A DNA stretch of 63,538 nucleotides, filler included, from Folioceros fuciformis (lineage: Eukaryota): the NCBI GenBank assembly GCA_049999805.1. It is 9 parts of 9 records of this genome, joined end to end, with 100 filler letters (N's around TTAATTAATTAA, not from the genome) between each part and the next. Parts side by side here need not be neighbours in the genome. Positions count along the whole stretch, not along the records: positions 28,356 to 38,606 come from JBNGIO010001114.1; 8 more parts are not named here. The stretch is one strand, 5' to 3'. The notes under the pieces are model-generated. The model ran no database searches and was not told the DNA's origin. It worked only from the letters and a program-made list of their open reading frames with translations. The position numbers and the translations under genes are program-made. Shown here piece by piece: positions 8,601 through 56,289 of this stretch (the first letter of the stretch is position 1; each line of letters begins with the position of its first letter).

Positions 8601-9136
8601 ACAACCTGGAGGCGGAGACGGGCAGTCAGTGCGGGCAATGGCCGGAGCAAGGGCATCAGCGGCAGGAAAGTAGCGACACACAGTGCAGGAGTAGTAGCGG
8701 TAGGGATCTGTACCCTGGTGTTGGAAAGTCTGGTAGGATGTCCAAGAAGGAAGTTCAAGGTCAGGGCGGAAGTGGTAACGGTAATGGCAGCAATAGCAAT
8801 AGTAGCAGTGGGTGCCTGGGACACAGCGGCCTGGCTCTCAGCTTCTCCAGGACGCTGCACCGGCTGGGCCTGACAGGAGGAGGATCCTTCTGGAAATCCA
8901 GCAAGAGCAAGAAGAAGAGCAGCAACAGCTCCAGGCCCGAGCTTGACAACAATGCAGGAGCAGGTCCAGCAGCAGCAGCGCCTTCTGTAGGATCTCCGGA
9001 GTGGGTTCCAACGTCGTCGTCTTCCCTGTCCCAGCTTGGCGCGAGGAGCAGCTCGATGCGGTACTCCTCGACATCCACTGGCTTTGGGTCTTCAACGACC
9101 AGGCCTCGCAGCAGGCGCACCAACTCCATCGCTTGA
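5690..9136 (+). CDS. NPH3/RPT2-like (NRL) BTB/POZ + NPH3-domain protein; exons ~5690-6147, 6353-6422, 6535-7872, 8120-9136
   Basis: BTB motifs VFKLHK/YPLVSKSG/PGGSDVLELALNFCYG/AALRCAAEFLEMT. NPH3 motifs WWVKDL, HDLLYKAIHVFLK-AHP, LNCQRLSQEMCSHAVQNELMPLR. C-terminal coiled coil. GT-AG boundaries join in frame, including the short ...LHK exon typical of NRL genes. Start codon is a best guess. Confidence 0.9.
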
Positions 9137-11822: not shown

Positions 11823-12140
11823 ACCAAGATGAAAGCCGAATCGAAGGGCTACGTAAGCGGCCCCACTAGCAGCGATTTATGTGTGTAGACTGGCTCATGC
11901 CACTTTTTGTTTCACCTCGCCAAGCTTTCCAACACTTCCAGCGAAAGCATCACAGCAGCAGCAGCAAACAGGGAGACTCGTTCCATTGCTTTCGTCAGCC
12001 TTCTTCCTCCTCCTTCTTGCTGCTGCTGCTGCCGTGGGAGTGCAATTGCGGGAGCGCCCATCGTTATCGTCGTCGCCATCGCCATCGCCACCGGCTTGCT
12101 GTTGTTGCCATTTTGGATAGGATCGCCAAGATCGCGCTTT

Positions 12141-14688
12141 ATGAAGCTCGGGGCTGGGACAGCTACGGCCGGCCGCACCACGCCATCGCCACCAGCAGCA
12201 ATTGCAACCGCGGGAGCAACAGGGGGAGGAAGAGGAGGAGGTCCGGGAGGACTGGCGTCACCCAGGGTGGTGGCGTTGCGGCTCCTGCGACTCTCGCACG
12301 ATTATGGCGTCCGCTCTCTCGGCCGCTGGCATCAGGATGTTGCCGCTCTTTCAGCCTGCTGGGATCAGCACACAAGCACGAGCAAGGGCCGGGACAAAGG
12401 CCTGTATCCCTGCCTCGCAACAGGACGTCGCTCCCGCGCCTTATCTTCTTTCCAACCGCGCTGCCTGAACAATGCTGTGGACCAGGCAGCCTCTCCGCGC
12501 AATGAGGACGACCTGCTCCGCTCCGAGCTCCTCTTCGCGCAGGCCGGGGTGGCCACGCTCGCGGACGGGCAGACGGAACAGGTCGTGAACTCCACATTGT
12601 TGCAGCTCTCGGAGCGGGAGCGGGAGCGAGAAAGGAAGCGGGACGCGAGCGTTGTCTCGCCGGATCTCAAGCTCGTGCCGGATCATGCCGAAAGCGAGCT
12701 GGAGAAAGAGGCCTGGGAGCTGCTGCGGGCTTCCGTTGTGTCCTACTGCGGCAGCCCCGTGGGAACCCTGGCGGCATGTGATCCCAACGATGCAAGCCCG
12801 CTCAATTATGATCAGGTCTTTATCCGGGACTTTGTGCCGTCCGCCATCGCCTTTCTGCTCAAGGGAGAGCATGACATTGTCAGGAACTTCATTCTGCATA
12901 CACTCCAATTGCAGGTCAGCATCTCGCAGCCATTCTTGTTCCTCTTCTTCCCATGCTTTTCGGCCGTCAATTTGCGTCCTTTGCTGAGCCGGTGAGGGAT
13001 TTGTGGTGGAGCAGAGCTGGGAGAAGACGGTAGACTGCTACACTCCTGGCCAAGGCTTGATGCCAGCCAGTTTTAAGGTTCGGACTGTGCCTCTGGAGGG
13101 TGGCGATCCGGATGCCACCGAAGAAGTGTTGGATCCCGACTTCGGGGAGGCTGCTATCGGCAGAGTGGCACCAGTCGACTCAGGTAGGTTCCTATTCCGT
13201 GCTTCCTTGCTTCGCATGCTGCCTTTCCTCGGCCTTGAGACTCCTCTCACTGAGAACTTCATGCCTCCTGGATTTATCAGGTTTATGGTGGATTATCCTT
13301 CTTAGGGCTTATGGCAGGAGCACTGGAGATAAATCGTTGCAGGATCGGGTTGACGTCCAGACGGGCATTAAGATGATCCTCAAGCTCTGCTTAGCGGATG
13401 GTTTTGACATGTTCCCCACCTTGCTGGTCACGGATGGATCATGCATGATTGACAGGCGGATGGGCATTCACGGCCACCCTCTGGAAATTCAGGTACCCTT
13501 ATCTTGGAGCCGAACTTCCTCCACATGCTGATCCGTAATTCTGTGATCGAAACTCTTCTCATTCACTGATATGTTCTCTGATCATATGCGAGCAGGCCCT
13601 ATTTTATTCTGCCCTTCGCTGTGCACGTGAAATGCTTGTTCCTGAGGATGGTGCAATTGAATTGATACGGGCCCTCAACAGTCGCCTCAGCGCCTTGTCA
13701 TTTCACATCAGGGAGTACTACTGGGTAGACATGAGGAAACTGAATGAGATCTACCGATACAAAACAGAGGAGTACTCCTACGATGCAGTGAACAAATTCA
13801 ACATCTATCCAGAGCAGGTTTCTCCCTGGTTGGTGGAATGGATGCCTGAGCAAGGAGGATACCTAATCGGCAACCTGCAGCCTGCCCACATGGATTTTCG
13901 AGTTTTCTCGCTGGGAAACCTGTGGTCGATAGTTGGCTCCCTTGCAACCCAAGAGCAAGCAGAAGCCATACTTGACTTATTTGAAGCCAGATGGACAGAT
14001 TTTGTGGGCAATATGCCACTCAAGATCTGTTTCCCTGCTTTTGAGGCGGAAGAGTGGCGGATTATCACCGGCAGTGATCCCAAAAATACGTGAGTTTCTT
14101 GACAGAGCAGTCTTTGCCTTTTGCTTAGTAGGTCATGTTCCCCTTATCTGTTCATCTCTCTTACGTAACGGATGTTGTTCTATTGCACACAGCCCTTGGT
14201 CCTACCACAACGGTGGCTCCTGGCCCACGCTCCTCTGGCAGGTAAATTTCCAGTCCTTGAGAATTTCCCAGGTCTGTGAAGAGGGTGTGTGTGCATACGG
14301 TAGTAACAGTGAAAGCTGGAAGGTGGTGTACTCAAACGAATCTGTTTGGGGTCTTCTGTTGCAGTTCACTGTGGCCTGCATCAAAATGAACCGGCCAGAG
14401 CTTGCCCAAAGGGCCGTTGACGTTGCGGAGAAGAGGATCTCTAGAGATCGGTGGCCTGAATATTACGACACTCGAACTGCCAGGTTCATTGGGAAGCAGG
14501 CCCGGTTGTATCAAACTTGGAGCATTGCAGGCTATCTAGTCGCAAAGCTGTTGCTGGCTAACCCACAAGCAGCTCAGATCCTTACTTGTGAGGAGGATAT
14601 TGCCCTACTTGAAGCAACCACCTGCCTGTTGGAAGCGAATCCTCGAAAGAAGAGGGGCAAGAAGGTGCCCAAACCCGTCATCGTGTAA
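12141..14688 (+). CDS. Alkaline/neutral invertase (GH100), organelle-type; exons ~12141-12914, 13015-13183, 13281-13492, 13596-14089, 14193-14241, 14365-14688
   Basis: [91 protein letters not shown]. All introns GT-AG and in frame. Long N-terminal extension is consistent with a transit peptide. Start codon uncertain. Confidence 0.95.
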
Positions 14689-19112: not shown

Positions 19113-19212
19113 NNNNNNNNNNNNNNNNNNNNNNNNNNNNNNNNNNNNNNNNNNNNTTAATTAATTAANNNNNNNNNNNNNNNNNNNNNNNNNNNNNNNN
19201 NNNNNNNNNNNN
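19113..19212. other. Artificial contig spacer N44-TTAATTAATTAA-N44 (also at ~28256, 38607, 41417, 48789, 53795, 57509, 59984)
   Basis: Identical 100-nt unit occurring eight times. The core gives stop codons in all six frames. Confidence 0.97.
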
Positions 19213-26890: not shown

Positions 26891-29521
26891 TCCACTCTCC
26901 TTTCCGCGGTATTCAAAATCTACATATTTTTTGTAGATATGAACCATTAGAGAGCCTCAATTGGATTAAAAAGCCACGGGAGAGGCACCATGCCCCTCCC
27001 TTCCCTTCTCCCTCCACGCTTCAGCTTTGTGAGACATCTTCCAAAAAATTTGTCAGGAAATCATGGCGAGAACCCACCGATCTAGCACCCGGCGCCCTCG
27101 CCACCTTGAGGTACGTTCGCGTAGACCAGCTCGCTCAGGAGCTCACCATCGATCCACACTGTACGGTCAAAGCTCCGCACCAAGATGGGTGCAACGAGCT
27201 GTAGAAACCTTGACCAAGAACCCTAATTTGGACATTTGCAACAAGCAAACCAAACACAGATGTTTGGCAGGCCTCAATCCTCACCAGGGCTGTGACGGCA
27301 GGCCATGGCGTGCCTCACCCTCATCTAATCTGCTCCCTCCCGATACCTGCAAATGCCATATTCGCAAATTTGCAGAAGAAGAGGGTGCAGAAGGCAGGAG
27401 GCACGCATAGCCTGCCCAGGGGCACCCCTTTTGAAGCCATATCTAAGCAAAATTGGTTAAGATCTAAGGAGGAATTGAGTGCATATGCCGGATTGCAGCA
27501 CGACGGCCAATTCACAGCAAATTTCGATCCAAAATTGGGCAGCTCCAAAGCAGATTTACAACCGGAGGAGATGCTTGGGCCTCGCGGATCTTCACCCGCA
27601 GCCGATCAACATCGCAATCTACCGCAAGCGCTGCATGATCAGCGCGCCATCGCGGAGGTCGGACCGCCCACAAAGCGACGCGCGGGCGGGCGGGCACTCG
27701 TGAAGCGATGCCCAGGCCGAAACGACAACTTAAGTTGTCATTTTGGAGGCGAGACATTGCCCTACCCGTGAAACGACAAGTTAAGTTGCCGTTTTGGTGT
27801 TGAACCGATTTGGGCCTCCCCAACCGGTGTGAAAGCGGCTTTTTCGGGCACCGGTTCCGAACCGGTTCTCCCTAGCGCCGTTTCACACGAGCATTTGGAC
27901 CCTGGGAGTTTTGAACCAACACTAGTATATGTGCAAGTGAAGATTGAGCCAACTTTGCCTATCCTGCAATTGGAATCTTTGGCTTTTGCGGATCAAACTT
28001 CTCTTCTTTTGGGATTAACTAAAGCACACAACTCAATGTTTGGTGGACCTAGTTTTTTGCTTTCATGGTATAGCAAAATCGGAGGTGGATAGCTTGCAAG
28101 TTCCTGACTAGTCGGACATTGAGTGGTCCTGAGCACTGTGGAGGCAAAACCCCGGGCACTGATTGCCGACGGGTTCCACCTTTAGTGGCCACACTTATCC
28201 CACTGTCGTTGAGACATTGGGTTTCGTTCCCACGAAGGAGCGATGGGGTTCCTTGNNNNNNNNNNNNNNNNNNNNNNNNNNNNNNNNNNNNNNNNNNNNT
28301 TAATTAATTAANNNNNNNNNNNNNNNNNNNNNNNNNNNNNNNNNNNNNNNNNNNNATCCCTCGTGACATCGTGTCTGAAGCACATTTTCAACTTACCCTT
28401 CCACTTGTTCATCATAGTGAAATTTTGCTCCAGGTTGAGAAAATCTCTCAGCAAATGCTGTTGTACCCGAGCTCTCTACATGATAGGTGTAGTTAAAGCC
28501 TTGGACCGAAAGATCCGTTGAGGCATCAGAGCAAGGAAAACAGCCATGAATATGGCTGGGAGGGCAGTGTACCTGGCTAGCACCTGCCGGTTTAAAGTTG
28601 AGGCACCGCTGGCGCTGAGGGCCTGCTTACCGGGAATATATGTACTTGGCAATTGGAACTGAAGGTTTGATCTGCATCAGATTGACGTCTGTCAGTTGAT
28701 CTACATCAATAGTGATCCTCACATGCTCGAAGATAAATAAGTGGGGCCGGTTTCACGTGTCATCGTGCACAGAAACACTTTTTCTGTGTTTCAAAGCTTC
28801 AATGGCCAGCTATGGAGAAGGTATCAATATGTGATGCTAAGATACATGGGGAGAAGGCACGTACCAGGACTGTGATTCTGGACTTCAAGAGGGACCACCA
28901 GCATGCAGTAAGCAATTGATGCAGTACGCACTTCTCGTAAGCCTCCGCGAAGTCCATCTTGGGCGCATACCGAGCTGCCGATAGGAGATCATACGTTTGG
29001 GGCAACAGTGGACACTTGATCCCCACCCTAAGATTGTGTGAGACATGGAGAACTCGGTTGCGGAGAGACTTGCGTCCGACGTGCTGGGTTCGTGCCTCCC
29101 CAGCCTCATCAAACCGCGGATCAGTGCCTCCCCAGCTCGACCAACCAGCGGACACCCTCCGCTGGGCACCCCCTGCCACAGCTGGAAACTCAATCCTGCA
29201 AGCACATCCCTGCTTACATGGGATCTGGGCTAAATTCGAGGCCTGCAACCCTGATTCCATCTCCTGCAGTTGCCCATCGCTCACAGGTGAGCTCGTCCGA
29301 CACCGTGACCCTGCCAAATTGCAAGCCCCCGCTCGAGGCAGGCGCCGCCCAATTCTGATATCTTATTTAGCAGTTCGATGGGTATTATCAACCATCCATG
29401 TCCATGTCTCACTTTGGACAGGGATGCAGGTAAGCAAGTTCATTACCATCCCCCCCCCCCCTCTCCCCGGAAAGTAACATTCCCTGGCACAGAAACTTGA
29501 GCCCTGGGCGCTTCTTCATCT

Positions 29522-32500
29522 TCAGGGTCGACCCTTACAACTACAAGAACCAGCAGCAAATCGATGCACACGGTACCCATCCCTTACAACAATGTTTCTC
29601 TGTTCAAGCCTTGACATGACCTCCGTGGAACTGTGGCAGTCACTGCACATGCGTAGATTCTTCGTTACTACCAGAGGTGTCCCACTCGGAGTGTTCAAGA
29701 GACCAAACGCCAGAGCTAGCTTTTCAGCATGCCCACAAAGCGCATCTTCCTTTTCCTTCTCACACATTGGCTTCAACACCAACTTGGTGTGAGGTATGTG
29801 GCCTCCTTCCTGATTCAAGCGTGCATTCGTGCTCTGTGCCTTGACCGCAACACCCTCCCTCATTTCTCCCACCATAAACGTATGTACCTCCTTGTTCACC
29901 TCAATACTTGCCATTGCTGGTTTCTTGTTAGCTCCTGCTGCCATTCTCTGTCTTTCAATCCTGTCTACATCGGTCCACCTACCTGCATCTGCATAGGCAT
30001 TGGCCATGAGCACATGCGCAGATGCATTTTGAGGGTCAAGCTTAACAATGTTTTCAAAACACCGTATCGCCCTCTCTACATCCCCGTGAGTTTTGCAAGC
30101 ATTTAACAAGGAAGTCAAGCCCACAAGATTATTTTGACCCTCATGCAATACAAGCACTTTCTCTGCCTCATCTAAATGGCCAGCACGCCCAAGAAGATCA
30201 ATCATGCTACTGCAATGCTCAACAGTAGGTTTGATGCCATGCAGTTCAGTCATGGAATCAAAGTGCTTGCGACCCTCTTGGACCAGTCCCTCATGACTGC
30301 ATGATACTAGAAGGCAAGTGAAAGTAGCACAATCAGGCTGAATACCAGCAACTAACATCTCCTCAAAACAAGTCAGTGCTTTGTGCCCGTCATCATTAGC
30401 ACCATACCCACATATCAGGGCATTCCAAGTCACCACATCCTTTGTGGACAAGCTGTCAAAAACCTGGCGTGCAGCTTCCAGTTCACCACACTTAGCATAC
30501 ATATCCACCAAGCCGTTGCCCACCAGTACGGCATCCAGCAGTCCTCTTTTGACAATCTGTGAGTGCAGCTGTCTGCCCTTCTGCAAGGCACCAGTGATCC
30601 CACAGGCCTTCAGAAGGCAAGCAAAAGTCACATAGTTAGCCATAATCAGACCCTCCTGCTCCATTTGTGCATACACAAAAAGAGCTTCTTGGCCGAGTCC
30701 TTGCTGTGCATACCCAGCTATCAGGGCATTCCACGTCACCACATCCTTTGTTGTCAAGCTGTCAAAAACCTGGCGTGCATCTTTCAGCTCACCACATTTT
30801 GCATACATGTCCACCAGGGAGTTACCCAACACTACGTTATCCAGCAGTCCTCTCTGAACAATCTGTGAGTGCAGCTGCCTGCCCGTCTGTAAGCCACCAA
30901 TGCTTGCACAGGCCTTCAGAAGGCAAGCAAATGTAACGTGATCCGGCAAAATCAGGCCCTCCTGCTCCATTTGTCCATACAAAGAAAGAGCCTCTTGGCC
31001 AAGTCCCTGCTGTGCCAACCCAGCTATCAGGGCATTCCAAGTCACCACATCCTTTGTCGACAAGCTGTCAAAAACCTGGCGTGCATCTTCCAGTTCACCA
31101 CACTTTGCATACATGTCAACCAGGGAGTTACCCACCACTACATTACCCAGCAGCCCTCTTTTAACAATCTGTGAGTGCAGCTGCCTGCCCTTTTGCAAGG
31201 CACCGGTGACTGCACAGGCCTTCAGAAGGCAAGCAAAAGTAACATAGTTTGCCAGAACCAAGCCCTCCTGCTCCATTTGTCCATACAGAACAAGAACCTC
31301 TTGGCCGAGCGCTTGCTCAGCATACCCAGCTATCAGGGTGGTCCATGACACCACATCTTTTGTGTTCATGCTATCAAAGACTTGGCGTGCAGCTTCCAGT
31401 TCACCACATTTCACATACATGTCCATCAGGGAGTTGCCCACCACAATGTTATCCAGCAGTTCTCTTTCAACAATCTGTGAGTGCAGCTGCCTGCCCCTCT
31501 GTAATGCTCCAGTGCTTGCACAGGCCTTGAGAAGGCAAGCAAAAGTAACATGGTTAGCAAAAGCCAGGCCCTCCTGCTCCATTTGTTCATACACAAGAAG
31601 TGCCTCATGTCCGAGCCCTTGGTCGGCAAACGCAGCTATCAGGGAGGTCCATGTCACCACATCCTTCGTGGCCATGTTGTCAAACACGTGGCGTGCATCC
31701 TTCAGTTGGCCGCATTTTGCATACATGTCCACCAGGCAGTTGCCCAAAATGACGTTATCCACCAGCAGTCCTCTTTCGACAATCTGTGAGTGCAGCTGCC
31801 TGCCCTTGTGTAAGGCACCAGTGCTTGCACAGGCCTTCAGAAGGCAAACAAAAGTAACATGGTTGGCCGAAATCAGGCTCTCCTGCTCCATTTGTGCATA
31901 CAGAACAAGTACCTCTTGGCCGAGAGCAGCTTTTGCGGCATAACCGGCTATGAGGGTGGTCCATGTCACCACATCCTTCGTGTTCATGCTGTCAAAAACA
32001 TGGTGAGCGATTTGCAGTTCACCACATTTTACATACATATCTACCAGGCAGTTGCCCACCATAACGTTACCCAGCAGTCCTCTTTTTACAATCTGTGAAT
32101 GCAGATGCCTGCCCTTCTGTAAGGCACCCGTGCTCGCACACGCTTTAAGAAGGTAAGCAAAAGTAACATGATTAGCCAAACTGAGCCCCTCTTGCTCCAT
32201 TTGGTCATACACAACAAGTGCCTCCTGTCCGAGCCCTTGCTGGTAACATCCAGCAACCAGCACCGTCCACGTCACCACATCCTTGGTGGCCATGTTGTCA
32301 AAAACCTGGCGTGCACTTCTCAGCTCGCCACACTTGACATACATGTCCATCAAGCAGTTACCCACAACCAAGTCAGGAGTAATGCGACTCTGCACCACAT
32401 CACAGTGCACTTTTCTGCCAGATTCCAAGTCGGCTGCTAATGCACAAGCTTGAAGGGCGGCTACAAATACGTGAGCATCCGCCGTAACTCCTGACCTGCA

Positions 32501-33367
32501 CATGTCGTGGTACAGTTGTATGGCCTCTGTAGGTTTCCCACGCTTAGCGCAAGCCGAAATTATGGAAGACCACAAGAAGGCATCCGGCCTGACCACCCTG
32601 GTGAAAACATCCATGGCCTCCTCCAGCCTACCTCCAGATGCATACATGCGCAAAATATGGTTGCCCAAGTATGCATTCGAGTCGAGCCCAAGTTCGACAC
32701 AGAGGTCATGAACCCGTCTCCCGACAACGAAATCCTTCCTAGCTGTACACAATTTCAGCACAGTGCAAAGGATAGACTGAGAAACAGCAGAGTCTGTCTG
32801 CGCCAGAGATTCCAGGGCTTCGACGGCCTCAGACAGCCTCCCCTGCTGACATAACGTGCTCACGGTCACAGCCGTAATGACGCCCATTTCCGATCCTGAC
32901 CATCTACCAGATTCAGGCCTACCCGGACAGCTGAGCTCAAAAGGAAAGGCACCACCAACCATCTGCATGTCCAAGGCAACGAGCTGCTCATCAACCCAAG
33001 CTGGCTTAAACACGCTGTTTAACCACAGCACCTCGCCAGACCACTTACACCGGAAGTCAGGCGAACGCGAGCTCTTCTTGACTCGTCTGTTGTCCCACCA
33101 CATGGTAGGGTCCAGAAAAAACTGTTGCCACAATTGCTCCTGCTCCTGGCGACGACCATCGCTGGAAAAGCCATGCCCACCCACACATTTCATCGGATGT
33201 GGAATTGCTGGGCTCATCACACTGCAGCACCTGGAGGCTTGGTCCATACCACGAGGGGTTGACTCCATACAACGAGATGAGCCGGAGCTGCTAGAAGAAT
33301 CCCTGTACATGCACCGTTCTGTTGGATCCACAACGGATCCGATTGCCATAATGTGTCCATCATTCAT
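29522..33367 (-). CDS. PLS-class PPR protein with N-terminal PDF motif, ~26 PPR motifs (L-S, 7x PLS, P2-L2-S2), E1/E2 and a DYW:KP (GRP-ending) domain; candidate organellar U-to-C RNA editing factor
   Basis: Intact 1281-aa ORF with regular P/L/S triplets. KKPAMASIEV stands in place of the PG box, followed by HAEKLA...CSDCH and a terminus CSCKGRP*. The true N-terminus may lie further upstream. Confidence 0.95.
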   Translation of the reverse strand: MNDGHIMAIGSVVDPTERCMYRDSSSSSGSSRCMESTPRGMDQASRCCSVMSPAIPHPMKCVGGHGFSSDGRRQEQEQLWQQFFLDPTMWWDNRRVKKSSRSPDFRCKWSGEVLWLNSVFKPAWVDEQLVALDMQMVGGAFPFELSCPGRPESGRWSGSEMGVITAVTVSTLCQQGRLSEAVEALESLAQTDSAVSQSILCTVLKLCTARKDFVVGRRVHDLCVELGLDSNAYLGNHILRMYASGGRLEEAMDVFTRVVRPDAFLWSSIISACAKRGKPTEAIQLYHDMCRSGVTADAHVFVAALQACALAADLESGRKVHCDVVQSRITPDLVVGNCLMDMYVKCGELRSARQVFDNMATKDVVTWTVLVAGCYQQGLGQEALVVYDQMEQEGLSLANHVTFAYLLKACASTGALQKGRHLHSQIVKRGLLGNVMVGNCLVDMYVKCGELQIAHHVFDSMNTKDVVTWTTLIAGYAAKAALGQEVLVLYAQMEQESLISANHVTFVCLLKACASTGALHKGRQLHSQIVERGLLVDNVILGNCLVDMYAKCGQLKDARHVFDNMATKDVVTWTSLIAAFADQGLGHEALLVYEQMEQEGLAFANHVTFACLLKACASTGALQRGRQLHSQIVERELLDNIVVGNSLMDMYVKCGELEAARQVFDSMNTKDVVSWTTLIAGYAEQALGQEVLVLYGQMEQEGLVLANYVTFACLLKACAVTGALQKGRQLHSQIVKRGLLGNVVVGNSLVDMYAKCGELEDARQVFDSLSTKDVVTWNALIAGLAQQGLGQEALSLYGQMEQEGLILPDHVTFACLLKACASIGGLQTGRQLHSQIVQRGLLDNVVLGNSLVDMYAKCGELKDARQVFDSLTTKDVVTWNALIAGYAQQGLGQEALFVYAQMEQEGLIMANYVTFACLLKACGITGALQKGRQLHSQIVKRGLLDAVLVGNGLVDMYAKCGELEAARQVFDSLSTKDVVTWNALICGYGANDDGHKALTCFEEMLVAGIQPDCATFTCLLVSCSHEGLVQEGRKHFDSMTELHGIKPTVEHCSSMIDLLGRAGHLDEAEKVLVLHEGQNNLVGLTSLLNACKTHGDVERAIRCFENIVKLDPQNASAHVLMANAYADAGRWTDVDRIERQRMAAGANKKPAMASIEVNKEVHTFMVGEMREGVAVKAQSTNARLNQEGGHIPHTKLVLKPMCEKEKEDALCGHAEKLALAFGLLNTPSGTPLVVTKNLRMCSDCHSSTEVMSRLEQRNIVVRDGYRVHRFAAGSCSCKGRP

Positions 33368-34499
33368 CAGAAACCGCCGTCGGAAGATAAATCTGACTCA
33401 CAACAAACTTGTGGCAGGATGCCCGGGAATGCACTTCGATCGACCACACCATACGGGCTGGATCCCAACAGCCCGACCGGCCCCGACCTGAAACCGAAAG
33501 AGCTCGATCGAAAAGCACAAACCTGTGCGCTTGTACGGCAACCATATTACATTGGATACAGATTTGCGGCAGGTAGGGAGTAGTACTCAAATGCTTTAAG
33601 TTACGACTAAATAAAATATGCATATTTCATATCCAAGACTCGGGAGATGGCGCGTAAGACCTAGCTTGTCTGTGTCTGAGAAAGCGGGCAGCGAGAGCAC
33701 TGGAGATGGTTATTCCTCCGTGATCAGGCCAGAGCCGCCACGGCCGACTCGAGTCATTGCTATCCATCCATCCAGGCATTTCACCGTGAAACGAGCTGCA
33801 GAGTCACAGAAGTCGCTCCAGGCGCATTCGCATATGCCAAGAAGCGACAGCTGCTACTCACTGGCCTCACCTCACCACTTATCCTATCGATCACTTTTCT
33901 GTGTTCTGACAGCTGCTCATCACTGGCCTCATCGCCTATACCAGCTATCACTTTTCTGTGTTCGGACAGCTGCTACTGAAGATACAGCATTTCCGTTCAC
34001 GGCTTACAGACTGGACGAGCTTATCTTATCACGATGGGATTCGATGAAACTCAACTCCCCCGGAGAGTCACTGCCAGAGGAACCGGACGCTCGCGACTTG
34101 GAGATATTGCTTTGCAGGTCTTTCGTGTTCCAGATGCCGTACTTCCGGAGCCTCACAGTTTGTGAGGCGGTCGGGGAAGGCAACCACTTGGTGGCACCAG
34201 GAATGAACACGCTGTTCTAGTAGCCAGGGCTGATACCGGCCGGCGACGTAAGCACGCCGCGTCCATGTTCAGACAAGAGCATCCACTTGCTCCACCGGGC
34301 ACACCACTCAGGACGGGACAGACGACCCCTTTCCAACACTAGTTCGATTTAAGTAACATTTCCGCTTATCCGAAAATATAGGGACTGAAAATGTCTTGTC
34401 TCTAGGGTTGCTGCTCGTCGGGAAAGCATAGTGCTCTTAGATCCACCTCCATCCCTTATAAACCAAACTTTGAGCTCGTTGCTCGGGTAAGAATCTAAT

Positions 34500-37320: not shown

Positions 37321-39251
37321 TGTCCGCCTCCACGCTCATTAGCCCTGCGCCACAGCCTCAGAATAACAAAAAGTGGTGTCCATCACGTAACGGTTTTTCG
37401 TTACACTTTTATCACTTCTCTTCTCAAACGCTTGCCCTCTCATCTGCCGTTGCCTTCCCTGCTTCGCGTCCCTTCCCCGTTTGCCTCCCTTTCAAACCGG
37501 TTTTCCCAGGTGCCGAAAGTATCGCCGCGAAAAGCCAGCGAGGCTCGGCGGACCGAGCCTTGGCGTACGGTGTGCGTTTGTGGGCGACGCGAGCTTGGAA
37601 TATAGTACCACAACCCAAGCGACCGGTCAGGACAGGATGCAACAAAGCGGAGAGAGCTCGTCAACCGGCGCCAGCCTGGCACAAGAGCCGGTAGGGGACG
37701 GGGTAGTCATCACTGGTCAAGTGAAGCAACCTGCCACGTCGGCAGGTCCAGTCCAGTCACGTGACTGCGGCGGGGCCCTCCGGTCGCCGACCTGCTGCAG
37801 GTCCAGACTGGACCAGCGAATCAATGTCGCCGTGAGGCCGGAGCTGGTATTGCCGGCCATTGCAGTTGCGCCGTGCAGGGTCGGATGGATTCGCCGCGGC
37901 CTGGAAAGGCCCAGACCAGGCTGGGTTGGTCTGGACGGGTGGCGGGCCGCCGACTATAAATAGCGGCCCGGGTTTCTGGGCCGAACCTAACGCTGGGCGC
38001 AAAGCGCGCGGGCGGCCCTGCTGCAGCTTGGTTGTGTGCCCGTCACCCGGGAGTCTTCTGCTGGGATCGAGCCGGCGCTGATCGCTCGGCCTTTTCTAGG
38101 AAGGAAGGATTCGTGAGAGCGCGCGGCTGTGCGGTGGGTGTCGCCGGCGGCGGAGCTCATGGAGATGCGGGCCGGGTGAGGAGGAGGTGAGTGTGGCGTG
38201 GGTGACACGTTTTGTGATTGATGTTTCACGGTAGAGGATGCGCGGGAAGAGAAGGCGGGGGCTCGGGTGTGGTGCTTCTGCTTGGTGTGTGCAATTGGTG
38301 CTCGGCTCTTGGTTTCTTGGGTTGCGGTGGCGAGTTCTGGTGTGGGCGGTGGCTTATGCGAGTTGATTAGGTTTGGAGGGAATCGGAACGCGGAGTTTGA
38401 ATGTGCGGGACGGTTCCTTGTGTTTGAGGTTTGCGGCGGCGGAATGTAACGATGTATGGTGTGGTTTTGCATCGTCGTGTGTTGTAGGGGGCTATGGTGG
38501 AGGGTGGCGGCGAGAGTGACAGTGAGATGCCGGTTTGTTGATGGCGCTCAGGCTTGGGACGTAGGGGCGGTGAGGTTGTGCTCTGCTCTGCTGTACTGTG
38601 CTGGAGNNNNNNNNNNNNNNNNNNNNNNNNNNNNNNNNNNNNNNNNNNNNTTAATTAATTAANNNNNNNNNNNNNNNNNNNNNNNNNNNNNNNNNNNNNN
38701 NNNNNNGTGTGAGGATCCCCAACACTGAAATTGCAAGTGCAACTCCGACTGCGACTGCAAAGGTCCAGTTCGTTACCTTGCTCCACCAGTTGTCCCAACA
38801 CTGCCACTGCGACGCAACGGCCCGCTCATCTGCAATACAAGATTAAGTGGCCCCCTTACGTTAGATCAAAGGTGTGGGCGAGCACGGACAGGCCTTCGAC
38901 ACAGCACTCTCATGATGGACCCACTTCAATCACCGCCCTGTTTGCTGCGCTCGGCCAGTCCCCAGCTCCAAAGGCTTGAGAGCCTGGTGTTGCAGTCCTG
39001 GTCGATGCTGGGGGAATCGCATTTGCTGCTGGCTGGGCCTCTGCTTCAGTTCAGGCACGAGGCCAGCTTCAACTTTACAGGTCCGCGACGGGGATCAGGT
39101 CTGGGGCACTTCATTCTGCAACATTGTAACAAGATTTGCGCAATTTAAGCGATCACGAAGCTCTCCGTTGCTTTTTGTGGTTTGCTGTCTCGAGTCCTGT
39201 GCTCTCAGGCTTGAGCGATGCCAGCCAGCCCTTTCGGATCGGTACTCTTTC

Positions 39252-39830
39252 TCACAGTCGGGGAAATATTAAAGAGTCACGGGAAATGGTTGGATCTTTG
39301 TCGATTCCCCCGAGCAGGAGCAATCTGAATGTGGACGTGTGCGTGTGCGTGTGCGTGTGCGTGTGCGTGTGCTTGTGCTTGTACTTGTGCTTGTCCTTGT
39401 ACTTATACTTGTGTGTTCGCGGAACCGTATCCAAAGCAGCCAGCTGCTCATTCACCCAGGCGGGCTTGTGCAACTTGTTTAACCAGATGTAGAGGAGCTG
39501 TTGGGCGTGGGTTTGCCGGCAGTTGGGCCGACTGAGGCCATGTCTAAGCTGCCTGTTATCCCACCCGGGCGCGGGATGCTGAAGCGATCGATTGTCGGAG
39601 ACTCCACAAATGCTCCTGGCGAGCAGGACTGTCGGTGGAGGGCGAGGGCAGGGCGGTTGGGTAGGCCTCCACCCTGTTGCGCGCGCGGGGGCGCTGGAAT
39701 TGTGGCCCAGACGCTGCAACCTGAGGACGCAATCCTTGATGCTTGTGTGCAGTGAGGGCAACGAGTTCCGTGGCCCCTGTGGATGTGAGCATGGCTCATT
39801 GCAGCACACCGGCGAGGGCCCATCATCCAT
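39252..39830 (-). CDS. 192-aa ORF carrying a divergent PDF motif homologous to the PPR N-terminus, without PPR repeats (gene or remnant)
   Basis: WDNR...IWLNKLHKPAWVNEQLAALD aligns to WWDNR...LWLNSVFKPAWVDEQLVALD at protein and DNA level (~39430-39490 vs ~32970-33030). Confidence 0.45.
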   Translation of the reverse strand: MDDGPSPVCCNEPCSHPQGPRNSLPSLHTSIKDCVLRLQRLGHNSSAPARATGWRPTQPPCPRPPPTVLLARSICGVSDNRSLQHPAPGWDNRQLRHGLSRPNCRQTHAQQLLYIWLNKLHKPAWVNEQLAALDTVPRTHKYKYKDKHKYKHKHTHTHTHTHTHTSTFRLLLLGGIDKDPTISRDSLIFPRL

Positions 39831-42049
39831 GGCTGCATGTCATCCTGCCAACATTGTTCCCTAGTGCGCTGTGTACGGAGCATGCTTTTTTGTGCTCTGG
39901 TACACGGCTGTCAATCACTTCCTTGGAAGCTGCTGGATGGCAGGGTATGGCATTGCGTGTGGACAACCATGACGTAGCATGACATAACATAAGCTGAGCT
40001 AAGCCAAGCCAAGCCAAGCTAAGGGAAACAAACAACCATAAACATATCCAATCCAATGCAATGCAATCCCATCCCCAGAGACAATGGAGGAGGAGGAGGA
40101 GGAGGAGAAGAAGCTGCTGAAGCAGAACAGAAGAAGAAGAAGAAGCAAGGACACAAAGGAGGAGGAGCGAGGAGGAGAAGAAGCTGCTGAATCAAAACAG
40201 AAGAAGAAGAAGAAGAAGAAGCAAGGACAAAGAAAGGAGGAGGAGCAAGGACGAACCACCATCCAAGAGAAGTGAAGACAAGAGCAGAGCAAAGCATAGC
40301 ATAGCATAGAAGAGAAGAGAAGCGAAGATAAGAGAGGAAAAGAGAAGCTAAGGTGGTGCCATATGGGATGGGCCTCCCTCCCTGTCGTGTCGCCAGGCTG
40401 TTGTGGATTTTGGCGGGATCCGTCTCTCCTTTAACATTCTATTTCTTTATTCAATCTTAATAATAATAATAATAGTATATTATTTTTATTCTGAGTTCAG
40501 TAAATTTAATACGTGAAATGTAATCCCAATTCACTTTGGTCTCCAGGACAATCAAAGTACATATCTATGAGAGGTGAGCCAATGTCCTATTATTGCTTCT
40601 TTTTTTCCCTTTTTTTAGTTAAAAGCTTGATATTATTATTTTTCTCTCTTTCTATTGTTATTATTAATGACATATTCTTGGTTGGAGCCAGAGGAGAGGA
40701 GAGGAGAGGAGAGGAGAGAGTTTTCATGTCCACACACTCCATGTATGTATATATAAAAAGAAATACCGCATCAGGGTTCTTGTCACATGATAGATTTTTG
40801 TACAACATCATCAAAAAAATCATGATTAAACCGTTCCAGCAGCTACCATGACACGCATCATGTGTCGTGTGCACATGTTCTTTTACTTCCTTCAGGGTTT
40901 TTCAAGTACCCAGTACCAGTACCAGTACAGCAACAATTGCAGCAGTAGCAGGTTATCGTTGGACTTTAACGTTCTCTATCAAAGTTGGTTAGTTAGTTAG
41001 TTAGATAGTTAGTTATAGTCCCGGTTGGTTGCTCATGAATACTCAACCCACTGGATGGAGCTAGTCAACTAGGTACCAATACTACCTTCCATGCCTCACT
41101 CACTCACTCACTCAATATCTTATCTTGTTATTCCGTTCCATTGGTTCCTTTCAACTGGCTTGGCTTGGCTCCATTCCGTTCCGTTCCCTTCTTGATTATG
41201 AAATAATTGGTTCGAAAATGATGTGATACATTGTTTCAAAAGGGCTTAACATAATGCGTACATATGTTCCAAGATGACAACTTTGCACAAGAACTCCAAA
41301 CCCCTTGCTTCCCCTCAACAAGACACTTGAAGTATGTACTCTACAATAACTTCTCATGTTATGTTCAATCCTTTATGAAAATCTTATGGCTGATCCATCA
41401 GCCACCATGTGGTGTGNNNNNNNNNNNNNNNNNNNNNNNNNNNNNNNNNNNNNNNNNNNNTTAATTAATTAANNNNNNNNNNNNNNNNNNNNNNNNNNNN
41501 NNNNNNNNNNNNNNNNTTCTTCATTCATGAACTCTACGTTTACAAGATATAATTTTATCCATAATCTGACATGAGGAGAATTACAAGACTCATGTCAATC
41601 TCTATAATTTTTATTGGTTCTTTTAACCATAATATGAAAAAAAATTGGTGCTACATATTGCATATCTATCTACATCCTGTTTTTGTTTAAATACAGAAAA
41701 AATATGATATAAAATAAGTCAAATAAAAATTAAAAATCATATAGTTTTCTCATTTTAATATAAATAGTATACACATAACAATAGGACTTTGATTTCCAGT
41801 GACTGTCAAATTTTGCTTTGTAACAGGTATATAGTAAAGGTCCAGTGTAAGATGTTCTCATTCCACACAGAAAGACTTGGATTCAGACTCCCTGGTGCTT
41901 TCAGTGATAGCCGATCCATGTAGAGTATGAGTGTGCTCAGGGGTAGTCCCCAAAGCAAGTTCACCCACAAGAAGCAAAAAAAACTTCCACACTGGCTTGG
42001 TCTCGGTCTCCTCAGGGTGGACCTGAGTCCTCTCGACATCCCATCCACC

Positions 42050-44190
42050 TACAGGCCTCTGCATAGGCATTGGCCATGGACACCCACGAGGACACCAGCA
42101 GCGGGTCCAGCCTAACAAGTCTTTGAAAACCACTAGATGGACTACATCCCCGTGACATTTGCAGGCATTCCAACAAAGCATTCAGTCCCATTAAATCATG
42201 CATTCAAAGCATTCAACATCACTTTGGCCCTCGCACGATAGGAGCCTGCTCTCAGCGTCATCAAGTAGCCTGCACGCCCTAAAAGATCAACCATGCAGGT
42301 GTAATGCTCGAGAGTAGGTTTGATGCCATGCTGCTCAGACACTGAGTTAAAGTGCTTGCGACCCTCCTGGGCCAGTCCTTCGGTACCGCGTGCTACTAGA
42401 AGGCAAATAAAAGTTAGCACCATCAGGTTGAATACCGGCAACTATCATCTCCTCAAAACAAGAGAGTGCTCTGCGACCATCATCACAAGTACCATACTCA
42501 GACATCAGAGCCGTCCGTGTCACCCCATTTTGCATTCACGTCCCCCAGGAAGTTGCGCAGTATTACTTTGCCCTGCAGTCCTCGTTCCATAATATGAGAG
42601 TGTAGCTACCTGCTCTTCTGTAAGGTACCAGTGTTTCCACAGGCCTTCAGAAGGCAAGGAAAAGTAACATGGTCAGCTACCATCAAGGGCTCGTCCTTCA
42701 TTTGTGTCTGAGCGCTGAGCGCCTCATGTCTGAGCCCCTTGCTTGACTTACCCATCAATCAGCGCCGCCCATGTTTACCACATTCCTAGAAGCCATGCTG
42801 TCAAAAACCCGGCGTGAATCTGTTAGTTCACCATATTTTGCATACATGTTCACCAGACAGGTGCCCGCGAGTATGTCATCCAGCAGTCCTCTTTGACAAT
42901 CGGCGAGTGCAGCTGCCTGCCCTTCTGTATGTAATGCATCAGTGCTTCCACAGGTCTTGAGAAGACAAGGAAAAGCAACACGGTCAGCCACAAATGAGGC
43001 CCTCTTCCTCCATTTATCCTGACAGAACAAGCGCCTCCTGGCTGAGTCCTTGCTGTGCAAACCCACATGTCACGGTATTCCACGTCACCACATTCTTTGT
43101 GGGCACACTGTCAAAAACCTTCTCAGGCATACTGCAGTTCACCACACGTTGCATACTATACATTTCTACCAGGCAGTTGCCGACGACCAAGCTGGCGGGA
43201 ATGCCACTGCGCAACACAAACACAGTGCCCTTTTCTGCCAGATTCCAAGTCGGTGGCAAATGCACCAGCGTGAAGGGCGGGTACAAAGACGTGACCATTC
43301 GCCTTCACTCCTGACGTATGCATCTCATGGCAGAGTTGTATGGCCTCAAGGGGTTTCAGTTGTATGGCCACACGTATAACCAGATGGTTTGCCTACCCTG
43401 GTGAACACATCCATGGCCTCCTCTGGTCTACCTCCACACGCATCCATCCATGTGCAAGTCATGGTCCCCCACGTATGCATCCTACTCATACCCAACATTA
43501 ACACAGAGGTCATGAACTTGAACTCCCCAGAACCAAGTCCTTCTTAGCTGTAAACAGTTTCGCCACAGTGCAGAGCAGAGACTGAAGAGAAGAAGCAAAT
43601 TCTGCTTGCGCCAGAGATTCCAGAGCTCCAACTGCCGCAGAAACTTCACGTGCTGACATGACGTGTTCAGGTTACAGCCGTAACGAAGCCAACTTCCAAT
43701 CCTGCACGCCTGTCAGGTTCAGGCTTATCCGCAGACCTGGACTCGGAAGGAGGGCGCCACGACCGATCTGTAGCTCCAAGGAAACGGGCTACTCATCACT
43801 GTAAGCTGCCTTGAATATGCTGTTTAACTACACTACCTGCCCGGATTCCTTGCGACGGAAGTCAGGCGAATGGGTGCTATTTTTATCTCGTCTGGTATCT
43901 CACTACGTGGTCGAGTCCAGACACAGTTGTTGACGCAAGTGCTCCTGCTCCTGGCCACGACCATCGTTGGAAGACTCGTCCCAACCCACACATTATCTCG
44001 GAAGTGGAAGTGCTAAGCTCCTCAAACTTCAGCACCATGGAGGCTTCGTTTTCCAGGAGTTCTACCGTTAAGATGAGGTGAGCAGTAGCTCCTGATAGAA
44101 TCCCTGTAAACACATCGCTTCGCTGGTTCCACAGCGAATCCGATCGCCGTACTGTGGCCATCGTCCAGGACCCGCTATCGGAAGAAGCTG
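42050..44190 (-). pseudogene. Decayed paralog of the PDF-PLS-PPR gene (PDF, shortened PLS array, P2L2S2, E1, partial E2; no DYW visible)
   Basis: Colinear DNA similarity to ~30000-33390 (e.g. EGLAQEGRKHFNSV..HGIKPTLEHYTCMVDLLGRAG, ALSCFEEMIVAGIQPD, MANAYAEA), with many frameshifts and stops. Confidence 0.9.
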
Positions 44191-48076: not shown

Positions 48077-49194
48077 CCGCTTCACTGCGGTGCCATTGCG
48101 TATCCAACATGGCTGGAGATTTTCGTTGTCTCCAACTCCTGTAGGTGCCTTCGGGTTCCACCGCGTCAAGACGCTGCCGCAAAAACCTGCAGCAGCGTTC
48201 AATTCTTTTGTACAGGGTGTAAAAATTGTACAGAGTTACTGTGGTTACTTTTATGTGGGATCAACAGCGTAAGGGTACATTGAGGCGAATGGAATGAGGC
48301 CGAGTTATATCCTGTTTTGTATGTTTCTACCTCCGTTTGTCAAAGACTTGTGGAGTACGCGTGAAGCTGAGGAGTCCCAGGCGTCTGTGAATTGTCACAG
48401 TCGCACATACTCTGCGCACTGTACTCGCTGCTTCAGAGACACCTCAAATGTCAGGGGGTGTTGAACAAGTCCGATTTGACTGGGAAAACTTTAGACTGAG
48501 AACTTCAGAAAATGGAGCGTGATGTACATGGCACCAGCCTTCAAGGAATTATGTCCTTAGGATGTATAATGTACTTGGTGAACATAAATGGTTCGAATCA
48601 GCAAGTTCACGACAGGATTCGGAGGGTCGGTCCCAGCCTCTGCGATCTGATTTTTCTGCAGGTGGAAGTATGCACTGTCTACCGCCATTATGCTCTGACC
48701 TGTGATGTGCACAGCAGGGTCGAATTTATTGCCGACATCTCCGTGAATTGCAGGCGATGGGACTAGTCTTAGCTCAGCTGGCCGTTCANNNNNNNNNNNN
48801 NNNNNNNNNNNNNNNNNNNNNNNNNNNNNNNNTTAATTAATTAANNNNNNNNNNNNNNNNNNNNNNNNNNNNNNNNNNNNNNNNNNNNTTATTTTGATAA
48901 TAGAAATATATATATTACTATATACCACTAAAGAAATTATGTCTCCTTTAATGGAGAAACAGGATGGCAGGCTCTGGCAGGCTCGAGACAAACCCCGGAA
49001 GGTAACTAGGAAAGAAATTAGGCTACTAGAGGTACATATTTTTCTATCATGTATATTTTCAAAAAATATGGTATAAGCAATTTTTATTTTTTTTTGTCAT
49101 CTCAGAGAAATTTTAACTTACAAGATCATTTTTATGGAATACCCATACGGTTAGGCTGGCTTACAGTGGTATATAATCCAAAATATACTTTACT

Positions 49195-53794: not shown

Positions 53795-56289
53795 NNNNNN
53801 NNNNNNNNNNNNNNNNNNNNNNNNNNNNNNNNNNNNNNTTAATTAATTAANNNNNNNNNNNNNNNNNNNNNNNNNNNNNNNNNNNNNNNNNNNNCTTTTT
53901 CAACCAAAACAAACTACTACCCCAAACTTTGGAGGTTCACACCACTAATCTAACCTAATCTCCTAACCGTTTCTCTACAAAATTCAATAAGAGATTCTAA
54001 AAAAAGAAACCCTACCATTTTCCAGGGTCTGTTTCTCCTGTGGCCTCCACAGGGGGGCAGGCGGCTGGCTGCAGGTGGCTGGATCCAGTGGAGATAGGTA
54101 GGCTAGTCGAGGCCGGGCAGAGCAGGCCGGCTTGTGGGCGGCCTGGTTGGTCAGCAAGCTGGCCACTGGCCTGGCCATCCTACCTCCTGCCTGGCTGCTG
54201 AGAACTTGGCAGGCAGCGATGCAAAGCCCGACAACTGGCAGGCGGATCCCAGGTAGTCCAGGGGTGCATCGCGGCAAGGCCGAGAGCATGCAGGTTGGTT
54301 GATCTGATAGGCGAGCTATGTAGCTAGATCAACCAGGTGAGGTACTGGCGAATCCTGGCAGACCGCTGGTCGGCGGCAGGGGCTGAAGCAGGCAGGTGGA
54401 CCTGTGGGTCCAGGCAGCCAGGCCGACTCGTTGGACCACGGCCAATCGGCGGGCTGGCTGAATCATGGCCGAAGCAGCCGGGTTGCAGGTAGGTGCTGCC
54501 ACCAGGCCGGCTGCGAATGAGGCTGGAGCGGACGTAGGCAAGGCGGGTCCAGCAGGCGGAGTGGATCAAGCTGGGTGTGTGTGGGTGGAGGCTGGATCGC
54601 CAAGACAAGCTGAGCATCCGAGCGGGGAGGCAAGCCGAATTGACAAGGCCCGGCTGGATTGGCAGGCAGGCAGATGGTAGGAAGGCATGGGCGCTCTGTA
54701 GACGGCCAGGTCTGAGCGAAGGGCTCTAATAGCACTGTGGAGGGGTGCTGAACCAGGGCAGTACGAAGCGGGGGCTGGTGTCCAGGGAAGAGTACGGGCC
54801 ACATGGTAGTGATGTGTGCAATCGGATGGGGGCCGTATGCAGCGGTGAGATGTGCCTTCAGCCATCAGCACATCTCAACCATCAGCGGTCGGGGCAGCTT
54901 GCCGTTCTCGGACACGCTGCAGGAGTACCTTCTGGATCTAAAGAATGAGCAGCAGTGGAAGTGTCGGCTGGTGTAGTGTTCCAGGTGCCTCTCCTGAAGG
55001 GGGGGAAGTAGTGGGTCCGAGTTCCAGATCCTGCTGGGCTGAGAGGAGATCCAGCTGGGGTTGTTGAGAGGGAGTAAATTGAGAGGGAGTAGGCTTGTTG
55101 TCTAGGGGAAAGCCGGTCCAGGGGGAAGAAGGGGGGTGTTCTAAGTGACACTCCAAGGATGACAGTCTGGATTCCTAGTCTTGAGCTACTGTCAGCTCAT
55201 CTTAGTGCATGGAGGGAGGTATGAGGGAGTTAAGGACAGTTTTGAGAGGTACTGATGATCGTTGATGATTGTTGGTAGGGGCAACCAGCCCTGTCCAAGG
55301 GGTAGCAGGCAATTAGGGTTAGGTTAGGTCAGAGTTAGGGGCGACTTAGGTCAGAGAGAGATTGTTGGGCGGTTGACTGAGGCTAACCCTAGTAGACAAA
55401 GATGGAGGTTTGGGCCAAGGGTAGTAGAAGAGGCCAGACCTGCCATTGAGGAGGGGGTAGTCTACGGTGTGATTTCCCTTGGCCTTGTGTGCAGACTCCC
55501 GGCTTAGAGTGCTGAGCCGGTTGAGATTGAACCAAGGACTTGATTCCCCTTGCCACTAGGGGGACGTGGTGGATCCCAAGACTGCCGAGATCCGTGTGGC
55601 CGGATTCATAACGGCTGATCATTTTGCAGGCCGCCTGAGGTGAGGTGACAAGACCGTGAGCCAGGAGGGCTATCTAGTCCTAGTCCCCATCTCCTTGCTT
55701 GAAGACTACGAGAGGCAAGGCTGTTGTGTCCCAAATTCCAGGGTTGAGTTGAAGAGAAGTGTGGAGGTGTTGGAGTGAGGTGGAGTGAAGTGTGAGCTGT
55801 TGGGGTGCACAAGTGTGAGCTGAAGTGAAGAGGTGAGTGACTGAAGTGAAGTGATGGGCTGAAGGACTGAAGTGCTGGAGTGTGGAATTAGTGGGCTTGA
55901 GTTGAGGATAGGCTAAAGATTCTGACCTTTTTTGCTGGAGTATGGTTAGGGTTAGGAACTGGCTGATAGATAAGATGAGAGTAGGAAATTGTAGGCACCC
56001 TTGACACTAGTTCACTCCCTGGGAGCGAATCATAAGACTACAACAACAATAAGGGGAAGTGTGGCCATTTGGTGGTTCTTGGGTGTAAGAAATCACTCCA
56101 CAGTATCCCGAAAACGGAAACCTGGTGGCTCGTTGCGGCCCCAATCTTGAGGGAATGCGTAGGCAAGGCTCTGAAATTTCCCACCTTTGGCATCCAGTAG
56201 TAGAAAACTTTACCCACCTTCTTCCTCATAAGGACACACACCTTGATGTGCGTGTTGGCTGCGTCCACACTACCCGAGAAGAAACTTTT

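Follow-up and report, generated by a model that had tools for sequence, protein, structure and literature searches.

The DNA analysed here, called the window, is a stretch of 63,538 nucleotides (nt), filler included, joined from nine parts of the Folioceros fuciformis genome (assembly GCA_049999805.1). It contains a gene in which the PDF motif of the OSB proteins, which bind single-stranded DNA (ssDNA) in plant organelles, is fused to the N-terminal side of a pentatricopeptide repeat (PPR) protein. The product of this gene, the window protein, is most likely an RNA-editing factor of the PLS-DYW:KP class, encoded in the nucleus and acting in an organelle, and its mature form probably starts with a single PDF domain. 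Here, we report the homology of this domain to the PDF motifs of OSB proteins, the architecture of the fusion, the confidence of its predicted fold, its recurrence in ferns and lycophytes and its conservation, and we weigh several readings of its function, of which the one we favour is that of an accessory module for the binding of single-stranded nucleic acid.

Homology to the PDF motif of OSB proteins

The initial annotation of the window had interpreted a peptide encoded at positions 32981-33133 as an OSB-type PDF motif. Translation of the minus strand reproduced this peptide exactly as residues 79-129 of the PPR open reading frame (ORF), and the plus-strand reading of the same interval gave an unrelated peptide containing a stop. 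A phmmer search with residues 70-135 of the window protein against 1,835,955,588 representative proteins returned 577 matches at E≤0.001, including 138 at E≤1e-10 and 15 at E≤1e-30. One of these, P0031, which is named 'protein OSB1, mitochondrial-like [Populus nigra]', was matched in two stretches (E=1.1e-22), and its two PDF copies were aligned by BLASTP with 32 identities over 63 positions (51%, E=1e-17) and 27 over 55 (49%, E=2e-15). Many of the proteins found by phmmer are 300-500 residues long and were matched in 2-13 stretches. When ten matches were submitted to Pfam, seven gave a match to the SSB family (two of them above the Pfam cut-off), two were without a match and one was a kinesin. 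A profile built from PPR-linked PDF motifs also listed many proteins named OSB2, OSB3 or OSB4. The comparison with OSB PDF motifs that had been proposed as a check was thus significant by phmmer, by BLASTP and by profile search alike.

In a 42-sequence alignment, the window protein retains all six invariant columns (D92, R94, K97, D104, F105 and W124 in its own numbering) and all ten near-invariant columns (W80, F84, P87, W90, W91, P103, K108, L114, W115 and P122). WWDNR occupies residues 90-94 and the tripeptide PDF residues 103-105. The segment thereby agrees with the definition of the motif in PMC6963530, namely about 50 residues with Pro-Asp-Phe and flanking aromatic and basic positions. 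Together with the phmmer and BLASTP scores, these conserved columns confirm from sequence that the segment and the OSB PDF motif are homologous, the resemblance being far beyond chance, and on this point the initial annotation was correct.

Two other searches were less informative. A word-indexed protein search with a 66-residue fragment gave eight candidates, none of which was scored; this reflects a limit of sensitivity and is superseded by the phmmer and profile matches. A region search with residues 1-260 of the window protein gave two matches only. Some of the proteins matched by the PDF query have unusual compositions, each of which may be an artefact of its gene model: three PDF stretches and a kinesin motor in a single model of 1526 residues from Coptis chinensis (P0054), an array of 13 PDF copies in a 1160-residue protein of Kingdonia uniflora (P0002), and five copies in a 521-residue protein of the green alga Sanguina aurantia (P0008).

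Architecture and catalytic C-terminus

The PDF motif had been placed N-terminal to a PLS-type PPR array, and both the single continuous ORF and the Pfam matches agree with this placement. An in-frame stop is found nine codons upstream of Met1. The array is recognized by PF01535 in 19 stretches (E=1.4e-120) and by PF13041 (E=4.6e-126), and its landmark motifs return with a period of 101-104 residues, corresponding to tandem PLS triplets of about 306 nt. The succession of P, L and S repeats and then E1 and E2, by which PLS-class PPR editing factors are defined, is evident from Pfam and from these landmarks. No significant Pfam match was obtained for the N-terminal 193 residues of the window protein, segment 79-129 among them, from which it follows that Pfam has no model for the PDF motif. 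An SSB domain (PF00436) was matched neither in the complete protein of 1281 residues nor in its N-terminal 193 residues. Lacking this domain and having the PDF ahead of PPR repeats, the window protein is no member of the OSB family, although it has a PDF motif. An artefact of annotation joining two adjacent genes was also considered as the source of the fusion and was ruled out, since the ORF is single and uninterrupted here and since another PDF-PPR protein, P0003 (1371 residues), is encoded on a contig of 4755 nt.

The C-terminal domain, matched by Pfam DYW_deaminase at residues 1189-1279, has a KKPAMASIEV box where six PG-type proteins have K.PG.SWIEV (aligned by eye). The KP-type box is worded KPAxA. 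Further downstream are HAEK at residues 1213-1216, an active site with Ala where HSE has Ser, and the zinc ligands CSDCH at 1241-1245, and the protein ends in CSCKGRP. With the K of KPAMA taken as residue 1, the domain has 133 residues and the lysine in VVTKNLRMC has number 88, or 89 if the count starts at the preceding K. A KP-type box replacing the PG box, together with a highly conserved alanine, marks DYW:KP domains, and the KP proteins of hornworts comprise DRH and GRP variants (PMC9478123); a length of 132-133 residues and a conserved Lys88 are likewise characteristic of the DYW:KP domain (PMC11845758). The C-terminus of the window protein has every one of these sequence features and is that of a DYW:KP protein of the GRP variant, hence a candidate U-to-C editase. 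The KPAMA box, HAE, the length of 133 residues, Lys88 and the GRP end bear out its earlier designation as DYW:KP.

Predicted fold of the PDF domain

An AlphaFold2 model of residues 66-140, made with the 42-sequence alignment, had a mean predicted local distance difference test (pLDDT) value of 91.9 and a predicted template modelling (pTM) score of 0.77. The predicted fold is composed of a helix (69-85), two hairpin strands (90-92 and 105-107) and a second helix (125-138), in which the first strand is formed by the WWD of WWDNR and the second by the F of PDF and the two residues that follow, with a basic loop between them. A second AlphaFold model, of residues 60-400 (341 residues), reproduced the PDF fold. 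Its pLDDT values are under 50 between residues 140 and 157, and regular PPR helix pairs begin at residue 160 with the first helical hairpins of the array. Given this low-confidence stretch between the PDF fold and the PPR helices, the PDF is confidently predicted to be an independently folded helix-hairpin-helix mini-domain of about 65 residues, held on a flexible tether, a disordered linker of about 18 residues.

As modelled, the fold is without a solved structural relative in the PDB. Foldseek gave 14 matches to the PDB, all at E≥5.3 and none at E≤0.001, and a sequence-profile search of PDB chains with the PDF domain gave none at E≤1. In the ESM Atlas the best score for residues 60-140 was 0.75, to a phage cluster, which is below a useful level.

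Distribution and origin of PDF-PPR proteins

The counts of proteins combining PDF and PPR rest on the best 150 of the 577 phmmer matches and on the best 120 of 696 profile matches. Thirteen of the best 150 phmmer matches also matched the PPR region of the window protein, and PPR families were present in all eight of these that were checked in Pfam. The profile (A1) was built from 14 PPR-linked PDF motifs and identified 696 proteins at E≤0.001; PPR Pfam families were present in 42 of the best 120, consisting of 40 clusters from D. complanatum, P0003 and P0044 (Adiantum). At least 57 proteins thus combine PDF with PPR, that is the window protein and at least 56 database proteins, some isoforms being included in this number. 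The fusions named among the matches listed are from Adiantum capillus-veneris, Ceratopteris richardii, Diphasiastrum complanatum and Selaginella moellendorffii, and these matches cannot speak on presence or absence in mosses, liverworts and seed plants. On the evidence of these searches the fusion is real and common in ferns and clubmosses, and the idea of a one-off event must yield to that of a recurrent architecture that has expanded in lycophytes and ferns.

Among the 57 proteins, most have two PDF copies (35), fewer have one (14) or three (7), and a single protein has four. The copies are N-terminal to the PPR repeats, with the exception of P0187, in which two copies are found at residues 631-737, and the commonest spacer between tandem copies is 18 residues. 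The first PDF is preceded by at least 20 residues in 45 of the 57 models (median 62). A complete DYW domain was found in eight of the proteins. Two are KP-type, the window protein and P0111, both with HAE...GRP, and six are PG-type, with the PG box, HSE and a DYW end (P0138, P0186, P0199, P0226, P0234 and P0260). The remaining 49 are E-type proteins or truncated models without a complete DYW domain. A count of PDF-PPR fusions by type of DYW domain had been proposed in the initial annotation, which implied a special link between the PDF and KP-type editases; the database part of this count, made here, returned two KP-type against six PG-type proteins and hence no association with KP, and the implied link does not hold. 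The PDF as an accessory specific to KP proteins was rejected, as it is also found on the six PG-type proteins and on the 49 without a complete DYW domain. The association of PDF and KP is, as far as sequences tell, one instance of a general PDF and PLS architecture.

Public sequencing runs were also compared with the window. In three of them, from three studies (X2, X6 and X7), some 27-54 contigs each were at least 90% identical to the PDF-coding stretch (window positions 32977-33163), and the summed depth dropped at least 15-fold immediately upstream of this stretch. These observations are a slight indication that the PDF, though not the presequence, is common to many paralogues in related organisms, which would form a large PDF-PPR family. 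A further run, X1, contained pieces identical to the window, some of which lie outside the ORF, so that this run is probably DNA from this organism or a near-identical one.

The relationships among PDF motifs were analysed in two trees. The larger, made with FastTree, contained 198 PDF segments, of which 92 were PPR-linked and 106 came from 45 randomly drawn non-PPR proteins (at most four copies each); removed beforehand were seven isoforms or near-duplicates, as well as every segment with a coverage of under 49 profile positions. The PPR label changed five times on this tree against 65.6 changes expected under shuffling, and none of 500 shuffles was as low. The smaller, made with IQ-TREE, contained 70 segments (30 PPR-linked and 40 other) after the removal of eight long-branch rows, and the label changed four times against 23 expected. 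By these comparisons the PPR-linked PDFs cluster together, apart from the OSB-linked PDFs. The partner of the window motif in the IQ-TREE analysis was that of P0111 (SH-aLRT 91), and the pair was part of a group of nine containing PPR-linked motifs only (support 92), with P0003, P0081 (Adiantum), P0085, P0121 and P0150 (Ceratopteris) among its members. When all PPR-linked motifs were forced into one clade, the resulting tree was 6.58 log-likelihood units better than that of the free search (approximately unbiased test, p=0.63; 61 columns). A single origin of the PPR-linked PDFs is compatible with these data, not proven from 61 columns. In the reading we favour, a PLS-PPR gene gained the module in one event or a few, and its later spread in seed-free plants would have gone along with the expansion of the PPR family.

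Function of the PDF domain

When a PPR array binds RNA, its N-terminal repeats face the 5' side of the target, and a PDF tethered to the N-terminus would thus sit just 5' of the PPR footprint. We give about even chances to the reading that the PDF is an accessory module of the mature PLS-DYW:KP editing factor that binds single-stranded nucleic acid. It would grip the strand just 5' of the footprint without sequence specificity, the contact being made through the aromatic and basic hairpin (WWDNR...K...PDF.K), and would thereby raise affinity or on-rate and hold the target unfolded. Specificity would come from the PPR code and chemistry from the DYW:KP domain, and the PDF would be an add-on available to PLS editing factors in general and no peculiarity of the KP type. 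Reviews state that in AtOSB1 the PDF motif suffices for the binding of ssDNA (PMC6963530, PMC6451138). Editing by the moss factor PPR56 becomes more efficient with additional RNA upstream of the footprint of its PPR array (PMC10482289), which indicates that a 5' contact can matter. For the window protein we infer that the PDF is retained in the mature protein, that it binds nucleic acid there, with RNA rather than DNA as its ligand, and that it has an effect on editing.

The pattern of divergence is consistent with a working domain. When aligned with P0111, the closest PDF-PPR relative, the window protein is similar from residue 76 onwards, dissimilar across the linker and similar again from the first PPR, and the presequences of 75 residues are unrelated. 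Conservation of the PDF while the presequence diverges is as expected for a functional PDF and a fast-evolving targeting peptide. The signature positions of the PDF are also conserved across the 14 PPR-linked motifs, which come from at least four genera.

Several observations weigh against the binding-module reading. The motif of P0111 is eroded, with CWDIR and RDF in place of WWDNR and PDF, and two decayed PDF copies are found in the window itself (Table 1). One belongs to a pseudogene, of which only short broken PPR- and DYW-like frames are left; the other is an isolated remnant that has kept WDNR and the C-terminal part of the motif, has lost the middle and has no PPR remnant beside it. The erosion in P0111 and these two copies suggest that constraint may be weak in this lineage. 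The presequence contains 26% Ser/Thr in its first 50 residues, in which there are also six acidic residues and a net charge of -1; it is thus no textbook transit peptide, which leaves doubt about targeting and about the actual start. The PDF motif is closely followed by Met133 and Met135. In 12 of the 57 gene models fewer than 20 residues precede the first PDF, and some of these models may therefore be truncated or wrong. Finally, OSB1 and OSB2 prefer ssDNA over double-stranded DNA or RNA (PMC4166229), so that RNA binding by a PDF domain is not established.

This preference is the point of departure for an alternative that we consider unlikely, in which the PDF binds ssDNA and anchors the factor to organelle nucleoids or transcription bubbles, coupling editing to transcription with no contact to the RNA substrate. 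The only biochemistry reported for the PDF in the sources cited is indeed ssDNA binding, preferred over RNA (PMC4166229, PMC6963530), and the flexible linker predicted by the model would permit tethering. However, nothing indicates that PPR editing factors need contact with DNA, and PPR-DYW proteins edit alone in Escherichia coli (PMC6397227). The N-terminal place of the PDF, aligned with the 5' end of bound RNA, is explained equally well by contact with RNA. Tethering to nucleoids, melting of target RNA, replacement of MORF proteins and activity on ssDNA, all raised in the initial annotation, are speculative. Nothing supports editing on ssDNA by the window protein.

The signs of decay would be accounted for if the PDF, once fused to an ancestral PLS-PPR gene, had been carried along by the expansion of the family without a role in editing and were now decaying here. 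The substituted signature positions of P0111 and the pseudogene and isolated remnant in the same window fit such a passenger, as does the presence of the PDF on every subtype (KP, PG, and E-type or truncated), which argues against a subtype-specific role. We nevertheless regard this as quite unlikely, since the window copy has kept 16 of 16 conserved positions, the same positions are conserved across the 14 PPR-linked motifs from at least four genera, divergence is free in the presequence and the linker but not in the PDF, and many proteins have raised their PDF copy number to two to four.

Tandem copies could also serve as interaction platforms, and AtOSB2 has been reported as a tetramer (PMC6963530). 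Even so, it seems very unlikely that the PDF oligomerises, or recruits nucleoid or RNA-processing proteins, instead of binding nucleic acid: oligomerisation is not assigned to the PDF motif in the excerpts of the OSB literature consulted, and the conserved aromatic and basic residues would be typical of single-strand binders. Least probable of all is that the working protein has no PDF, whether by a start at Met133 or Met135, by an unseen upstream exon or intron, or by removal with the transit peptide; the two Met codons directly after the motif and the atypical presequence would suit this, but the motif belongs to a frame that is open from Met1 and has a stop shortly upstream, a motif bound for removal would not keep the OSB signature across ferns, lycophytes and the present organism, a separate presequence of at least 20 residues lies ahead of the PDF in 45 of the 57 models, and the compact predicted fold is unlike a transit peptide.

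Features of the window

The features discussed above and the other genes recognized in the window are listed in Table 1.

Table 1. Features of the window and the evidence for their assignment
Feature	Position	Strand	Evidence
PDF + PLS-PPR + E + DYW:KP protein (window protein, P0001)	29522..33367	minus	Uninterrupted complete ORF, 1281 codons + stop
N-terminal presequence, residues 1-73, non-conserved, presumed organelle-targeting	33149..33367	minus	No similarity to P0111 before residue 76
PDF domain, residues 74-134 (envelope of the hidden Markov model)	32966..33148	minus	phmmer and BLASTP homology, profile envelope, AlphaFold model
PDF core, residues 79-129	32981-33133	minus	ORF translation
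Flexible linker from PDF to PPR solenoid, residues 140-157	32897..32950	minus	pLDDT <50; gapped and unconserved in comparison with P0111
PLS-type PPR array, residues 160-1093, about 27 motifs counted by eye	30089..32890	minus	Pfam PPR, PPR_1, PPR_2, PPR_3
E motif (E1/E2), residues 1094-1156	29900..30088	minus	Pfam PF20431, E=5e-13, positions 1-63 of 63
DYW:KP deaminase-like domain, GRP variant, residues 1148-1281	29525..29926	minus	Motif positions and side-by-side comparison with PG-type domains
Frameshifted pseudogene paralogue, including presequence and PDF-homologous region	42028..44185	minus	blastn, 72.6% identity over 1706 nt to 31710-33387
Isolated degenerate PDF remnant	39429..39578	minus	phmmer E=2e-09, residues 88-137 of the stop-to-stop frame 39255-39839
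GCFC/G-patch protein	2-2014	plus	
NPH3-family protein	6469-7971 + 8084-9136	plus	
Alkaline/neutral invertase fragment	11907-12995	plus	

In the part of the PPR array at 29959-32363 (minus strand), several offsets of the gene, spaced by about 306-309 nt, align to one stretch of the pseudogene. The sequence suggests that repeat triplets of the array have been duplicated internally in recent time. The isolated PDF remnant is followed by a microsatellite of dinucleotide type that translates as K/H/T repeats. The GCFC/G-patch, NPH3 and invertase genes, located elsewhere in the joined window, are ordinary plant nuclear genes with long exons, and the region is gene-dense with about 50% GC. Eight pairs of 44-base runs of N, with 12 bases between the members of each pair (704 N in all), are found at 19113-19212, 28256-28355, 38607-38706, 41417-41516, 48789-48888, 53795-53894, 57509-57608 and 59984-60083 and are the filler between the joined parts.

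Relation to known systems

The window protein shares with the OSB proteins the same motif of about 50-60 residues (W..F..P..WWDNR..K..PDF..K..LW..P.WV), which occurs there in one to several tandem copies with short linkers. In OSB proteins, as described in the excerpts cited, the PDF is C-terminal to an OB/SSB-like domain, whereas in the window protein it is N-terminal to the PPR array. With the DYW:KP proteins of the hornwort GRP variant the window protein has in common the PLS array, the E motif and the 133-residue KP domain with KPAMA, HAE, CxxC, Lys88 and the GRP end. The descriptions of such proteins excerpted from PMC9478123, PMC11845758 and PMC13386178 have no domain ahead of the PPR array, in contrast to the window protein with its PDF in this place, and designer KP proteins start with PPR motifs directly behind the tag (PMC9478123). 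The MORF and ORRM helpers and the RRM-PPR proteins, fusions of the latter kind being catalogued in PMC13386178, would resemble the PDF-PPR proteins in that an extra non-specific RNA-handling module is combined, in trans or by fusion, with a PPR specificity module. They differ in being of another fold and family than the PDF. MORF genes are reported only from seed plants in the excerpts of PMC13386178, while named PDF-PPR proteins are, among the matches listed, only from ferns and lycophytes.

A PDF-PPR fusion was not found in the literature searched, outside which lay Zaegel et al. 2006, Gerke et al. 2020 and Gutmann et al. 2020 with their supplements; the initial annotation had been unable to confirm whether the fusion is published. 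The relevant papers on the 'PDF motif' in this literature concern OSBs only. A survey from 2026 on how OSBs evolved (PMC13393729) has 'PDF domain' in 21 places and neither 'PPR' nor 'pentatricopeptide' in any, and a 2026 kingdom-wide survey of editing factors (PMC13386178) treats fusions that combine the hallmark domains PPR, MORF, ORRM and OZ and never uses 'single-stranded' or 'SSB'. The PDF-PPR fusion seems to be undescribed so far.

Significance

The usual description of a PPR editing factor comprises a targeting peptide, a PPR array and E/DYW domains. A folded, conserved domain ahead of the array in dozens of proteins of seed-free plants is a part that current classifications have missed, because Pfam has no model for the PDF. 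The use of the PDF motif is thus wider than the OSB proteins. If the PDF improves the capture of RNA, it could be added to designer PPR editors.

A more far-reaching proposal, which we find doubtful, is that the PDF-PPR fusions are an ancient class of 'self-sufficient' editing factors of seed-free plants derived from a single fusion. In these factors the PDF would act in cis as MORFs do in trans, or would couple editing to the ssDNA of transcribing nucleoids, and it would have contributed to the evolution of the very large editing systems in hornworts, lycophytes and ferns, including that of U-to-C editing. If this were true, the PDF would be a new fold of a general binder of single-stranded RNA or DNA and a possible improvement for synthetic PPR editors. 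The fusion bears on how native factors, including the uncharacterised KP-type U-to-C candidates, find and hold their targets.

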